Shown: piece by piece, positions 18,090 to 38,543 of the stretch
Position numbering within the stretch: the stretch's first letter is position 1
Layout of the letters: every line of letters starts with the position of its first letter
The notes under the pieces: model-generated
What the model saw: the letters and a program-made list of their open reading frames with translations, nothing else
Databases searched by the model: none
What the model was told of the DNA's origin: nothing
Program-made: the position numbers and the translations under genes
Sequence record: NC_005833.1
DNA from: Escherichia phage T1
Direction: 5' to 3' (one strand)
DNA length: 48,836 bases

Positions 18090-18758
18090 ATGCACTTACC
18101 AAATGGCGCACAAATTTTCGTGGAAACCTCTCGCGGGGTAGAGGTTGAGGCAACCGCTATCACTAACGCAGAAAATCCTGTTGCTACAGTTGCATCTAAG
18201 GGTGACTTGGCAAAAGGTGATTACGTTATTGTAACTCAGTCAACTTGGGCAAAGATGGTTAGTCGAGTGCTAATTGTTACTGACGCTCAGGAAACAAGTA
18301 TCACTCTTGCTGGAATTGACACCTCCGATACTCTTGTTTTCCCGGCTGGCGGCACGATGAGCTTTGCAAAAATTACTGGCTGGACTGAGATCCCTTGCGT
18401 ACAGGAGATTGGTCAGGACGGCGGCGAGCAGCAGTATTACACTTATCAGTGTTTGTCCGACGATAAAGAGCAGCAGATCCCAACGTTTAAATCTGCGGTC
18501 TCGCTAACTTACACCTTCGCGCACGAATTTGATAACCCGATCTACCCGATTCTGCGCAAGCTGGATTCGTCTGGTCAGGTAACAGCGGTTCGAATGTACG
18601 TTCCGAAAGCGAGCGAAATGCGCATGTGGGCTGGCATCTTGTCGTTTAACGATATCCCATCCACGCAGGTTAACGAAATGGAAACGGTGGAACTCGCCGT
18701 ATCCCTGAAAGGTGACTTTACTTTCATCTCATCCACTCTGGCATCGCCTGGTGCTTAA
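18090..18758 (+). CDS. major tail (tube) protein
   Basis: Track ORF 18036..18758; start refined to ATG 18090 after AGGAGA; precedes chaperone and tape measure genes. Confidence 0.5.
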   Translation: MHLPNGAQIFVETSRGVEVEATAITNAENPVATVASKGDLAKGDYVIVTQSTWAKMVSRVLIVTDAQETSITLAGIDTSDTLVFPAGGTMSFAKITGWTEIPCVQEIGQDGGEQQYYTYQCLSDDKEQQIPTFKSAVSLTYTFAHEFDNPIYPILRKLDSSGQVTAVRMYVPKASEMRMWAGILSFNDIPSTQVNEMETVELAVSLKGDFTFISSTLASPGA

Positions 18759-18794
18759 ATACCATCCACAGGGGGCTTGCACCCCCTTATTCAT

Positions 18795-18850
18795 TTCTGT
18801 AAAATCATCTTATCAACTTTATTCGATTAACTTTTAACAAAAAGTGCTAT
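18795..18850 (-). promoter_or_regulatory. box copy in antisense orientation between major tail and chaperone genes
   Basis: Plus strand TTAACAAAAAGTGCTAT 18834-18850; reverse-strand reading has TAAGAT hexamer 22 nt downstream. Confidence 0.4.
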
Positions 18851-18871
18851 CAACCAATCAGGAGAAACATC

Positions 18872-19189
18872 ATGGCTAAATTCAATTTCGTGTTGGGCCA
18901 GCTTCCAGACTTCAAACTTCCGGTGACGTTCACCATGCCAAACGGCGAGGATGCGACTATTATTTTTACAGTACGCCACCTTTCCAGTAAAGAAGTGCAA
19001 GATATGTATGCGAAGCAGGGCGAAATGAATGATAGCGATTTCATCACTAAGATAGCATCAGGATGGAATCTGGAAGAAGAATTTAACGAAGAGAATACGC
19101 GTAAGCTGGTACAGTATTATCCTTCCGCAGCGTACAATCTGACGGCAACTTACATCAAGGCGCTCGCCGGACACCGCGCAAAAAACTAA
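18872..19189 (+). CDS. tail assembly chaperone (lambda G-like)
   Basis: 105-aa ORF directly upstream of tape measure gene; ends in slippery heptamer. Confidence 0.55.
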   Translation: MAKFNFVLGQLPDFKLPVTFTMPNGEDATIIFTVRHLSSKEVQDMYAKQGEMNDSDFITKIASGWNLEEEFNEENTRKLVQYYPSAAYNLTATYIKALAGHRAKN

Positions 19190-19506
19190 AAAGGGCGGTT
19201 TATCTGTTATATCAGAAACCGCCAACAGAAGAGCAATTAAGATCGGTTGGCCTCAGTCTTTCTGACTATGAAGACGAGGAACCGGAAACGATAATCGGCG
19301 ATGCTGAAATGGTGAAGGCGTGGAATGTTTTTACGTCAATGCTCACTCAGTGGAGAAGTTCAGGCGCTGGAGCTTATGGTCTTGACTATAATGTTTTGCC
19401 TATGTTGTTCAAAATCTATAAAATAGAAGATGAAGAACTGGCATTGCAGGACGTTAGGATCATGGAAGCGAAAGCGCTTGAAATGATTGCTAAGCAAAAC
19501 AACTAA
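18872..19506 (+). CDS. tail assembly chaperone, -1 frameshift extended form (lambda G-T-like)
   Basis: The -1 frame is open from 19186 through ORF 19309..19506; slippery A_AAA_AAC at 19180-19186; stem-loop 19194-19223. Confidence 0.45.
19180..19223 (+). other. programmed -1 ribosomal frameshift site (slippery heptamer plus stem-loop)
   Basis: A_AAA_AAC at 19180-19186 as last codons of chaperone ORF; 7-nt spacer; stem GGCGGTTT 19194-19201 / AAACCGCC 19216-19223. Confidence 0.5.
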
Positions 19507-19546
19507 GCCGCCGTTTGGCGGTTTTTTCGTATATAGGGGGGGTTAT

Positions 19547-22420
19547 ATGGTTGATAAGGTAGCAGGTCTATCTCTTGACGTTGACGTGTCAACAGTTCAG
19601 CGCGCTGTCAAGTCACTGAAAGAGTTTTCAAAGGCCAACGATCAGGCCGCTGATTCTATGGGTTCTTTAATCAATGAGTCAGAGGTTGCAAAACAGAAGG
19701 CCAAAGAACACGCCGAACAACTCAGGCGCCAGAGAAAAGAGTATGAGGCCGTGGAGAAGGCAATCGATCCTACAGTATCAAAAATGGAAAGGTTGAAGAT
19801 TGCATCTCAGCAGCTTGATAAACTCTGGCAGCAGGGAGTCGTTCCAGATGAGACTTTTTTCCGTTTGGGTGAAATGCTGGATCTGCAAAACGCAAAACTT
19901 GCTCGCAGCCGGGCCATGCTGACAGAAGAAGGGCAGGCAGCATTGCAAGAGGCGAAAGCAAAAGAGCAGGCGGCAGTGCGTAGCAAGGCGTTCATGGATG
20001 CCCTGAATGGTCAAGTTAACGCGATCGGTAAGACTCATGCTGAATTGATGGAACTGAAAGCGGCTGAGCTTGGTTTATCGAAAGAAGCAGCACCACTAAT
20101 CGCAAAACTTAAAGATCAAGGCCGGGCTATGAATGCAGCAGGTATTAGCGCCGGGGAATACAGACAGGCAATGCGAATGCTTCCTGCGCAGATCACAGAT
20201 GTCGTAACATCTCTTGCATCCGGTATGCCAGTATGGATGGTTGCTATCCAACAGGGCGGTCAGATTAAGGATTCGTTCGGCGGGATCGGTAACACGTTTA
20301 AAGTGTTGCTGAGTTATATTAATCCGGTCACGGCAGGTGTTGGCGTTCTTGTTGGTTCGTTAGGTATTCTAGCGAAAGCTGGTTATGACTCTTACAAATC
20401 AATAACTGATATTCAGAATGCGCTTATTGAGACTGGAGGTTATGCAGGTGTTACGGCTGAAGAGCTTGATTCAGTGTCTAAAAAGATCGCGCAGACAAGC
20501 AACTCAACCATTGGGAGTATTCGCGAGATTGTAACGGAGTTGGCGAGTTCTGGTAAGTACACCCGCGAGCAGATCCAGAACATCACTAAGGCTACCGCAG
20601 AGTGGTCAGCGTCAACAGGAAAATCAGCAAGTCAAATTATTTCTGAGTTCGAAAAAATAGCAAGCGATCCGGTAAAAGGACTGAAGAAGTTAAACGAGCA
20701 ATATAATTTCCTTGAAAAAGGGCAGCTTACCTATATCGATACATTAAGCCGGACGAAAGGAGAAACTGAGGCTGTATCAGAGGCTACAAAACTATTCGCA
20801 GACGTAATGGAAAAGCGAATGAAGTCGATCGCGGATAACGCTACTCCTCTGGAAAAGATGTGGAGCGATATTAAACAATGGGCTTCGGACGCGTGGGGAT
20901 GGGTTGGTGATCATACACTCGGGGCACTAAACCTGATTATCGACGTTGTTCAGGGTACAGTGATTCAGGTTAAAATGATTCTTGCGAAGGGTGATGAATA
21001 CATCTCAAACTTTATCGCCTCAGCCATAAAGGCAACTCAGTCACTGCCTGGAATGAGTGACTTCGGCGCTGATGTACTGAAGGAGCAGGAGAATATTGTA
21101 AAAAGTTCTCGCGACAACTACGATCAGTTAGCTTCAGATCTTGACGCTATTAACGCTCGTGTAGAAAAAGGCGAGATGGGATACATTGAAGCAATGAGGC
21201 AGCGCCGCACCCTTGAAAAGCAGTACAGTGAGGAAACTAAGGAGGCAATAAGGAAAGAAGCAGAAGAGATCGAGAAGCGAAACCGAGAACGAAATAAGCA
21301 GTCGAAAATTGTACGATCACCGACAGAGCAATTCGACAAGGAGTTAATTTCACTCAGGGCTCAACTTAAGGTATTGCAGGAGCATAAGGAGATCGGTCAA
21401 AAACTATCAGCACAGAGAAAGGCGCTGTTTACAACTGAGGCTACGATCGCTGTTCTTCGCGAAGCTAGTTCTAAGCGCCAGTTGTCTGCGGAAGAAAAAG
21501 CGTTGCTGGCAAGTCAGGAGAGAGTTATTGAGCTTGCGAAACAGAAGGCCGAGATTGGCGATCAGATTGTTAAGCAACAGCAGTTGAATGATCTTACCGA
21601 TAAATCTCTGAAGTTTGTCAATGAGATGACGGCGGCGACGGAACAGCTTAACGCGTCACGCGGTCTTAGTACTCGCGACATGGAACGACAAGCTGAACTA
21701 GCTAAAATCACCACTGATTACATCAACTCCGGCGGCAGCGAAGGAGACGAGAAACTTCAGAACATGATTAAGGCGCAAAATGATTACTACGCTGCGGAAG
21801 ATGCCAAGCGAGCTGACTGGTTGGCAGGTGCTGAAAGTGCTTTTGCTGATTACGGTGATGCAGCAATGGATATGTACGGCAATGTTAACGAGATCGCGTC
21901 AAGTGCCCTTAACGGAATGTCAGATATGATGGTTCAATTTCTGACCACAGGAAAAGCGAACTTTGAGGACTTTGCGAAAAATATCATCGGCATGATTATA
22001 AAGATGATTGCTCAGATGGTAATCTTCAATACGATCTCAGGCATGATGGGCGGTAAGACGTGGAGCTTTGCTGGAGGGGCGTCGTCTGGTGCTTCTGCGG
22101 CATCACAGGCAACCCCTACACCTGCTGCTTCTGTTTTTAGATCTGTATCTTCCGGCGGGGCCGCTGTATCACTTGCTGCCGCAGCGGGTAGCGTGGCAAC
22201 CTCTGGATTCAACGCATCAAACTCGGCGCCAAAGGTGGTAAACCATTCAGGAGGTGGAACGGTCGTTGACGTTAGCGGAATGGAGGTGAAAGTTGACAAC
22301 GGTTCAGATCCGAGGGGGATTTCTCAGGGCGTGGAAATGATGTTCAAAAAAATGATTCGTGAGTCTTGTTCGCAGGGCGGCGAGGTTTATAATTACATTC
22401 AGGAAAAAACAGGAGGCTAA
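19547..22420 (+). CDS. tail tape measure protein
   Basis: Track ORF 19487..22420; start refined to ATG 19547 after G-rich RBS; long helical Ala/Glu/Lys/Gln-rich protein with Gly/Ala/Ser-rich C-terminus. Confidence 0.85.
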
Positions 22421-36524: not shown

Positions 36525-38543
36525 GTGACAATGAACATTAAAAAACAGATTGCATTACTTGGCGATGACTATATAAAGAGAACTCAGGAGCGATTTACTG
36601 TTGGTGAGGTTGTTCCTTATCCGTACCAGGTTGTTGCTTATGCCGAGATCGCGAAACGCCTATCAAATTACGAGCATCCATTCTTCGTTAAAGCGTCTGT
36701 ATCCGCAGGTAAGACAATCATCTTCGCTATGGTGGCAAAGCAGTGTCAGAAAATGGGCTTAAAAATGCTTGTCCTGGCTCGTCAGGGTGAGATTGTCGAT
36801 CAGGATAGCGAAGAGATCGACAACTTCGGGGTAACGAACTCCATCTTCTCAGCGTCACTTGGAATCAAGTCCTGCTACTTCCCGATCGTGGTTGGCTCAG
36901 AGGGTACTGTTGCAAATGGCCTCGACAATGAGTTAGCTGATTTCGTCCCGCATGTAATTGGGATCGACGAATGTCACCAGGTGGATTGGGAAGACCTTGC
37001 GCAAGCCATCGAGGGTAAGGAAACAATGGAACAAATGAGGGGCGAGAAAGGGAAAATTATCATGGACGGAGATATTCCCCTGATTGGTAATGATGGAAAG
37101 CCTTTGCTTGGAACTAAGCGCAGTCAGTACACGATCGTAATCATGGAAATGATGCGGCGCTGTAAAAAGGTTCACGGTCACGATCTCAGAATATTTGGTA
37201 TGACTGGATCTGAATTTCGTGGCGTAGTTCCTATTCTGGTAGAGAATCCGAAAGCATTGGGATTCTGGCGTGAGCGAGTAACTGATATCGACACAAACTA
37301 TCTGATTGAGTTCGGCTCTGTCGTTCCGACTATATTCGGATCAACAGACGGAGTTCATTACGATCTTGATAAGTTCAAGGCGTCTAGCGAGGACGGAGTG
37401 CAGGACTTTACAGAGAAAGACATGAAGGCTATGGAAGATGAGATCCTTCATGATAAATCTCTGACTCAGCGAATCATGCAAATGGTCGCCAAAAAGGCAG
37501 AAGAACGCAATGCGGTCCTGATTACATGTGCTGGTGTGCGCCACTGCAAAGAGGCAGCGGCAGCACTTCCTCCGGGAAGCACCTATGCAATTATTACTGG
37601 CGACACAGACAACAAAGCGCGCAAGAAGATTCTTGACGATGTAAGGGCCGGAAAAATTAAATACACCTTTCAGGTAATGGCGCTCACTACTGGCGTTAAC
37701 GTTCCAAATTGGGATTTCAGTGTCATACTCCGCAAGATAGGATCGCTCACTCTGTTGATTCAACTTTTGGGTAGGGGTATGCGACTGCTTAAATCCTGGC
37801 AGGTTGCTGAAGGAATGGTTAAGCAGGACCATCTGGTATGGGATTTTGCAGGTACGATGGATGAGCTGGGTCAGCTTTATTTCGATCCGATACTTGAGCA
37901 GGCGCAATTCCAGAAGCGTTTTGAAAACGGCAAAGATCCGAAAACATGTCCGAAATGCGGTTGCGTAAATAGCTTCTATGCTCGACGATGCGTTAATGTC
38001 ATTGATGGTGAGCGTTGCGATCATTTCTGGACTTCTCAGATTTGTGAGGACCAGGTTGACGAGCGAACCGGGAAAATCCTTGTTAAAGGATGCGGTGCAG
38101 AGAATGACGTTGTTGCGCGAGTCTGTCGTTGTTGTGATGCTTCTCTTGTCGATCCTAACCTGAAGTTATCCGGTAAGGCGTACACCAAGAATGACTGGTA
38201 TGAAGTAAAGAATTTTGAGGTTACGCTAACCAAAAACCAGAAAGGCATAATATACAAATACACTCTGATTAACGACGATGGTGATGAGTTCAAGGCGTAT
38301 GAAAAATTCTTCCCCGAGTCTGACTCTAAGATTTGCGGTACGCTATGGAAAACTAAAGGTGTACTTCCTCATGTGTCAGATCCTAAAATGCGCCGCTACT
38401 TTATCGGAATGAAGAACGCCATCAAGATTTTGCAATACTCACATCATATTGCTCACCCGGTGCGCGTAACTCATCGTCGCAACCAGAAGAAAGAAGATAT
38501 CATCTCACGCAAAGACTTCGGTATGGAGGATATCCCGGAATGA
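36525..38543 (+). CDS. SF2 DNA helicase (DEAH-type) with C-terminal zinc-ribbon
   Basis: Walker A SVSAGKT, motif II IGIDECH; C-terminal CPKCGC..CRCCD cysteine clusters. Confidence 0.8.
   Translation: MTMNIKKQIALLGDDYIKRTQERFTVGEVVPYPYQVVAYAEIAKRLSNYEHPFFVKASVSAGKTIIFAMVAKQCQKMGLKMLVLARQGEIVDQDSEEIDNFGVTNSIFSASLGIKSCYFPIVVGSEGTVANGLDNELADFVPHVIGIDECHQVDWEDLAQAIEGKETMEQMRGEKGKIIMDGDIPLIGNDGKPLLGTKRSQYTIVIMEMMRRCKKVHGHDLRIFGMTGSEFRGVVPILVENPKALGFWRERVTDIDTNYLIEFGSVVPTIFGSTDGVHYDLDKFKASSEDGVQDFTEKDMKAMEDEILHDKSLTQRIMQMVAKKAEERNAVLITCAGVRHCKEAAAALPPGSTYAIITGDTDNKARKKILDDVRAGKIKYTFQVMALTTGVNVPNWDFSVILRKIGSLTLLIQLLGRGMRLLKSWQVAEGMVKQDHLVWDFAGTMDELGQLYFDPILEQAQFQKRFENGKDPKTCPKCGCVNSFYARRCVNVIDGERCDHFWTSQICEDQVDERTGKILVKGCGAENDVVARVCRCCDASLVDPNLKLSGKAYTKNDWYEVKNFEVTLTKNQKGIIYKYTLINDDGDEFKAYEKFFPESDSKICGTLWKTKGVLPHVSDPKMRRYFIGMKNAIKILQYSHHIAHPVRVTHRRNQKKEDIISRKDFGMEDIPE

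Follow-up and report, generated by a model that had tools for sequence, protein, structure and literature searches.

A conserved slip site and a predicted −1 frameshift in the tail assembly chaperone gene of Escherichia phage T1

The tail assembly chaperone gene of Escherichia phage T1 is followed by a second, small open reading frame in the −1 frame. The question raised by this locus is whether the two are read as separate genes or are joined by ribosomes that slip at the end of the first. An earlier note on this DNA had argued for slippage on a heptamer next to the chaperone stop codon. The window analyzed here is the whole stretch of 48,836 nucleotides (NC_005833.1). Comparison with relatives demonstrates, at the level of sequence, that the coding frame changes by −1 at 19180–19186 and that this arrangement is under strong selection. 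Two chaperones, one short and one long, very probably arise from a single start codon through a −1 ribosomal frameshift on A_AAA_AAC. A 1-kb query around the frameshift locus is 99.7% identical to Tunavirus T1 isolate MN153797, and at least 80% of the same query is covered by 60 further T1-like phages.

Slip site, overlapping frames and protein families

The features of the locus are collected in Table 1. The gene order is major tail tube, Phage_TAC_4 ORF, DUF1799 −1 ORF and tape measure protein (TMP_2 and Tape_meas_lam_C). The chaperone ORFs occupy 18872–19506 and the tape measure ATG is at 19547, in agreement with the claim that the pair stands right before the tape measure gene. Read from the sequence, the chaperone ORF ends in CAC CGC GCA AAA AAC TAA, of which the earlier note had given the last four codons correctly. 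The X of the heptamer is the third base of the GCA codon, which puts A_AAA_AAC in X_XXY_YYZ phase and confirms it as the slippery site that had been claimed. The −1 frame, to which both 19186 and ATG 19309 belong, has no stop between 19105 and its TAA at 19504–19506, a range that covers the open stretch from 19186 proposed in the earlier note. The −1 extension is reachable only from the chaperone ORF. The long product as deposited is given in Table 1; its tandem-slippage version is join(18872..19186,19186..19506).

Table 1. Features of the T1 chaperone locus, in window coordinates
Feature	Position	Strand	Basis or remark
Major tail tube protein gene	18090..18758	+	Pfam Phage_tail_3, E = 1e-70; upstream neighbor
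Chaperone Shine-Dalgarno AGGAG	18860-18864	+	anti-Shine-Dalgarno duplex −7.4 kcal/mol
Short tail assembly chaperone gene, G-like, 105 aa	18872..19189	+	ORF list; Phage_TAC_4; NCBI AAP49960.1
Long chaperone, predicted GT-like fusion, 211 aa	18872..19506	+	join(18872..19183,19183..19506) as deposited
Slippery heptamer A_AAA_AAC	19180..19186	+	sequence; conserved slip motif in relatives
−1 extension, T-like segment, 106 aa and stop	19186..19506	+	includes ORF 19309..19506, usually annotated separately
Frame-0 stop TAA	19187..19189	+	adjoins heptamer; overlaps −1 Leu codon CTA 19186-19188
RNA hairpin	19194..19223	+	7 bp, 2-nt bulge, 4 bp, 6-nt loop; minimum-energy fold
Tape measure protein gene	19547..22420	+	Pfam TMP_2, E = 3e-74; Tape_meas_lam_C, E = 8e-26; downstream neighbor; ATG 19547

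The heptamer by itself is unremarkable; its context is remarkable. AAAAAAC is found 26 times on the two strands of the window, against 14.6 expected. ORFs of 80 aa or longer contain 58 in-phase X_XXY_YYZ heptamers, after which the −1 frame stays open for a median of 8 aa; at 19180 it runs on for 106 aa, and the site lies 0 codons from the stop. A +1 frameshift was also considered and rejected, because in T1 that frame meets a stop within 26 aa; in the relatives it does so after 1–38 aa, with one outlier of 73 aa. Alternative shift sites in the overlap 19105–19186 were rejected as well; none is in phase, and frame-0 periodicity lasts to 19179. Elsewhere in the window, three other in-phase X_XXY_YYZ heptamers have long −1 frames (95–242 aa), at 38075 (−), 12258 (+) and 821 (+). 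The ORFs of 82–85 aa in which they lie are probably not genes and are likely to overlap real genes in another frame.

Phage_TAC_4 (PF08748) matches residues 1–105 of the chaperone ORF with E = 2e-37 and a score of 128.6 bits, compared with a gathering threshold of 21.1. DUF1799 (PF08809) is found in the −1 extension with E = 3e-12 and 47.2 bits (gathering threshold 26). In the −1 readthrough the DUF1799 match begins at residue 24 and the phrog_680 match at residue 9, and ATG 19309 corresponds to residue 42. The conceptual fusion is matched by phrog_17368, with residues 1–210 lying on profile positions 1–212 of 213 (E = 1e-86). Because this profile spans the conceptual fusion end to end, fused products are already present in phage databases. 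A sequence search of solved structures with the fusion gave no meaningful match, the best being a proteasome subunit with E = 0.08.

Conservation among related phages

The comparative set consists of 93 related loci, 13 from GenBank phages picked across the identity range and 80 from IMG/VR contigs. Chaperone identity to T1 in these loci is 30–100%, and 72 unique sequences enter the per-site counts. At 92 of the 93 loci a slip motif, one further codon and then a stop are found at the chaperone end, together with a −1 extension of 103–107 aa. These relatives include Drexlerviridae, Dhillonvirus and one Pseudomonas phage. None of the 93 loci has the two parts in one frame or the second part in +1. 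The slip motif is A_AAA_AAC in 68 of the 93, A_AAA_G in 17 (Webervirus, GCA AAA GTY or GCC), A_AAG_G in 6 (Rogunavirus, GCA AAG GTC) and G_GGA_AAC in 1. The last of these belongs to the Pseudomonas phage, whose slip site CTG GGA AAC presents another canonical heptamer in the same place. The lone exception (L059, IMG/VR UViG_2974632794, about 1500–1570) has A5 rather than A6, and its extension is out of reach. A further locus (L017, 1500–1820) has several frame breaks within the chaperone gene. Neither oddity looks biological; homopolymer or assembly errors are the likelier cause.

At the level of single bases, A at 19180, a third position in frame 0, is kept in 71 of the 72 unique relatives, and the neighboring third positions show entropies of 1.7–1.9 bits. 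For the Arg codon just 5′ of the slip motif all four CGN synonyms are used among the relatives. T19187 and A19189 are invariant, and a stop follows right after the slip-site codons in 92 of 93 loci. Of the 72 unique sequences, 69 have CTA and 3 have CTG as the overlapping −1 Leu codon. These two are the only CTN Leu codons that keep a stop at this place, and the frame-0 stop is thus itself conserved; it may stimulate the shift or simply set where the short form ends.

Mean third-position entropy between 19142 and 19179 is 1.66 bits in frame 0, with 0.55–0.73 bits at the other positions. Between 19190 and 19264 it is 1.49 bits in frame −1, with 0.59–0.72 bits at the other positions. The heptamer is the precise point at which codon periodicity passes from frame 0 to frame −1. 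In Dhillonvirus JL1 a TGA lies in the −1 frame immediately 5′ of the heptamer, and therefore the frame change is possible only within those 7 nt. Family-wide conservation is seen in the peptide LKRAVYL.YQ..PT...L...G....DYE, which starts at the first −1 codon, and its LKRAVYL part begins about 40 codons 5′ of ATG 19309.

Several records met in this comparison deserve mention in their own right. T1-like chaperones with about 54% identity are found in 21 records named ‘Campylobacter phage’ (e.g. MG065641, Campylobacter phage A14a); they were met alongside those of Escherichia and Klebsiella phages, and the host label looks doubtful. In Pseudomonas phage YMC11/02/R656 (L029) the chaperone −1 ORF is separated from the tape measure gene by an inserted gene at 2010–2597 that is annotated ‘immunity to superinfection’, which is an unusual place for a moron-like gene. 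A scan of genome contigs with the T part gave a single locus (L031, JABUUR010000187.1, 1501–1809) at 50% identity. It lies on a 12.7-kb contig of a metagenome-assembled genome labelled Fibrobacter sp., probably a T1-like phage contig binned into a Fibrobacter-labelled genome.

Possible stimulators, proposed mechanism and rival explanations

The stem-loop described in the earlier note is present as GGCGGTT(T)/(A)AACCGCC at 19194–19201 and 19216–19223, beginning 7 nt after the heptamer. Its RNA reads GGCGGUU..UCUG-loop-CAGAAACCGCC. Folded alone, the hairpin has an energy of −15.9 kcal/mol (z = −5.3), and 0 of 200 dinucleotide shuffles are as stable; in an 81-nt context z is −2.0. The spacer between slip site and hairpin is usually 5–9 nt (PMC5009743), and the 7 nt of T1 fall inside this range. 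The same or an equivalent hairpin with a 6–7 nt spacer is found in about half of the unique relatives. JL1, with a different GC-rich stem, and the Pseudomonas phage have an equivalent hairpin. In Rogunavirus, Braunvirinae, Webervirus and some others the hairpin is absent or weak despite the slip site, and two lineages retain the RAV...KPP peptide without the stem. The covariation score of the T1 structure is 0.149, compared with 0.150 for a control slid by one column. Paired cells amount to 74% versus 31–49%, a figure biased by a structure derived from T1. The ‘hairpin clade’ was picked by stem sequence, so that stem third positions are invariant by construction, and this result is not used as evidence. 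Given this patchy distribution and a covariation score no different from that of the slid control, we grade the hairpin as a plausible, lineage-specific stimulator of the shift, not an established part of the signal.

A role of the hairpin as a transcription terminator was rejected, as no T run follows 19223. An upstream Shine-Dalgarno-like stimulator is not found in 19155–19179, where the anti-Shine-Dalgarno duplex of −3.2 kcal/mol equals the ORF average. An Rfam scan of 18700–19700 gave only chance-level matches and no frameshift element.

The mechanism that we propose from the sequence is as follows. Ribosomes start at ATG 18872, and most end at TAA 19187 to give the 105-aa chaperone, as the ORF and its Pfam match indicate. 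A minority would slip one base back on the heptamer and read the −1 frame to TAA 19504. The resulting 211-aa product would carry the shared N-terminal chaperone domain and, in addition, the DUF1799 domain. Lys and Asn tRNAs may slip together, which would give the junction AKN-L, or the Lys tRNA may slip alone on A_AAA and give AK-K-L. The fusion has 211 aa either way. The junction peptide in the earlier note holds as a conceptual −1 translation and fits a slip of the P-site Lys tRNA only; for tandem slippage it has to be replaced by HRAKN-LKRAVY, which lies within ...AGHRAKNLKRAVY.... Slippage may be made more frequent by the hairpin 7 nt downstream. By analogy with gpG and gpGT of lambda (PMC5009743), the shared domain may coat or bind the tape measure protein, and the extension may recruit the tail tube protein. 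The proportion of the two chaperone forms would be determined by a low and constant shift rate, as in lambda. In E. coli A_AAA_AAC is much less shift-prone than A_AAA_AAG (PMC5009743). This weak shiftiness counts to some extent against the proposal, yet it suits a G/GT system, for which a few per cent of the long product suffices.

Two explanations would do without a ribosomal slip. The downstream ORF might be translated independently from ATG 19309 as a 65-aa protein, with the heptamer there by coincidence. An ATG does exist at this position, and a separate CDS is annotated in MN153797, SH6, vB_Henu5_2, PeterMerian and others. We consider this reading highly improbable. ATG 19309 is without a Shine-Dalgarno sequence: its anti-Shine-Dalgarno duplex has −2.1 kcal/mol, while those of the chaperone, tail tube and tape measure starts have −7.4, −8.7 and −11.5 kcal/mol. 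The Met column at 19309 is not conserved, and the annotated starts vary from phage to phage. Among the relatives the position of the first possible start in the −1 frame ranges between codon 0 and codon 74, and annotators therefore placed the start of the second gene differently in each genome. The homology to DUF1799 and phrog_680 and the protein conservation reach up to 41 codons 5′ of the ATG. This 41-codon stretch shows −1 codon periodicity, and no ATG, GTG or TTG occurs in that frame in 19105–19308. The other explanation replaces the ribosome by RNA polymerase, which might slip on the run of six A at 19180–19185 and add one A to some transcripts. Transcriptional slippage serves comparable two-product genes in some bacteria (PMC5009743). 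However, related phages keep the arrangement with A4 (GCA AAA GTC), AAAGG or GGGAAAC. These make polymerase slippage implausible, yet tRNA re-pairing works on them, and for this reason we give polymerase slippage very little credence. Useful transcriptional slippage usually takes place on runs of 8–9 A or T or longer.

With a −1 ribosomal frameshift as the preferred reading, the two tRNA pathways can be weighed. A single P-site Lys tRNA might slip on A_AAA, with the AAC codon and the hairpin as accessories. All that 92 of the 93 relatives share is A_AAR or G_GGA at a distance of one codon from the stop, which favors a slip of the Lys tRNA. In Webervirus (A_AAA_GTY) and Rogunavirus (A_AAG_GTC) the second tRNA has no option to re-pair, and in E. 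coli the tetramer A_AAG is known to be prone to shifting (PMC5009743). The T1 product in GenBank also carries a K-K junction. On the other side, 68 of the 93 relatives retain the full heptamer, whose seventh base is always C, and at the same place in the Pseudomonas phage there is another heptamer that is again canonical. Retention of the heptamer and the presence of a second canonical one imply that the second codon matters, which favors tandem slippage. A slip of the Lys tRNA alone is thus possible, though we lean away from it. More doubtful still is its extension to the whole chaperone family. All that is essential would then be an A_AAR on which the Lys tRNA slips, set exactly one codon ahead of the frame-0 stop, and single lineages would adjust the efficiency through the second heptamer codon and the hairpin. 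If it were true, T1-like phages would form a natural series for how the G:GT ratio is set, with the members A_AAA_AAC with hairpin, A_AAA_AAC without hairpin, A_AAA_G, A_AAG_G and G_GGA_AAC. The same series would probe how far tail assembly tolerates changes in that ratio.

Known systems and prior record

The earlier note had assigned the two ORFs to the lambda G/GT type, and this is supported by gene order, protein families and comparative data, which all fit. The T1 pair is of this type by arrangement, not by sequence homology. The ORFs lie between tail and tape measure genes, the −1 overlap is without a start of its own, and the slip site is conserved and in phase; this arrangement class is said to have been set out by Xu, Hendrix and Duda in 2004. 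The lambda gpG and gpGT chaperones were reportedly studied by Levin, Hendrix and Casjens in 1993 and by Xu, Hendrix and Duda in 2004, 2013 and 2014. The two lambda products are made in a fixed ratio of about 30:1; tails are not assembled unless both are present, and the virion contains neither. The lambda system is summarized in PMC5009743.

As in lambda, T1 has two overlapping ORFs between the major tail and tape measure genes, the second of them in −1. The slip would likewise take place on a heptamer near the end of the first ORF, with a short and a long product that share an N-terminal domain. The T1 tape measure protein also has lambda-type domains. The protein families differ, with Phage_TAC_4 and DUF1799 in T1 and Phage_TAC_2 and Phage_tail_T in lambda. 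No homology of T1 G and T to lambda was found, with an hhalign probability of 0.1% for the G profile against lambda G and a BLASTP E = 0.3 for the T parts. The heptamer is A_AAA_AAC in T1 and G_GGA_AAG in lambda, and the stop follows directly after it in T1 but 5 codons later in lambda. A further difference is the stable hairpin 7 nt downstream in T1.

E. coli dnaX resembles T1 in having an A-rich Lys heptamer and then a hairpin a few nt downstream. A stable 3′ hairpin 5–9 nt after the heptamer, typical of dnaX, is found in T1, with a putative stimulatory role and partial conservation. dnaX uses an upstream Shine-Dalgarno-like stimulator. The dnaX combination of such a stimulator with A_AAA_AAG is not found in T1, where the heptamer ends in C. 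The dnaX heptamer is far more shift-prone in E. coli than that of T1, and in dnaX the shifted product is the shorter one. The same heptamer letters as in T1, AAAAAAC, reportedly direct a low-level −1 shift that fuses two ORFs in IS1 insA-insB′ in E. coli, as Sekine and Ohtsubo are said to have described in 1989. IS1 encodes a transposase, not a phage chaperone, and its sequence and context are unrelated to those of T1.

An exact look-up of the 211-aa fusion retrieves NCBI AAP50000.2, ‘tape measure chaperone [Escherichia phage T1]’, with the AK-K-L junction, and the T1 frameshift is thus already on record. As a change of coding frame, the T1 chaperone shift is real, strongly conserved, ordinary and already known. 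No protein-level evidence for it from mass spectrometry, a reporter assay or a mutant was found in the papers searched. A conserved translational frameshift has been stated for Klebsiella phage Skenny (PMC6763657), Citrobacter phage Stevie (PMC4319613) and E. coli phage U136B (PMC8104045), whose genes are homologous to those of T1 and have the same arrangement. The Skenny record MK931444 contains a joined CDS, ‘tail assembly chaperone frameshift product’. Skenny, a Webervirus, differs in having GCA AAA GTT TAA with only A_AAA_G and a weaker downstream structure, in contrast to the complete canonical heptamer and strong hairpin of T1. Most T1-like records, including that of T1 isolate MN153797, show two separate small genes with an arbitrary start for the second.

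The frameshift is needed for correct annotation of T1 and many of its relatives. If the system is lambda-like, the shift rate would fix the proportion in which the two chaperone forms are made, and these build a tail of the right length. The frameshift brings nothing new to phage biology in general; it is one more case of the most widely conserved recoding event of tailed phages. The variety of site types among the relatives is usable for studying which tRNAs slip and what the hairpin does.

The surroundings of the chaperone genes show a few features of their own. In the 1-kb comparison the T1 window differs from MN153797 by two substitutions, at 18972 and 19228, and by a sole indel of one G in the run of seven G at 19536–19542, a run that serves the tape measure gene as its Shine-Dalgarno region. 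The chaperone genes are flanked on both sides by terminator-like hairpins with T-rich tails. The first (18770–18787) lies 3′ of the major tail gene, and the second (19505–19524) comes after the −1 stop codon, some 20 nt short of the tape measure ATG. In the Skenny record terminators are annotated at the equivalent positions. The bracketing hairpins may give graded transcript levels across the tube, chaperone and tape measure genes.
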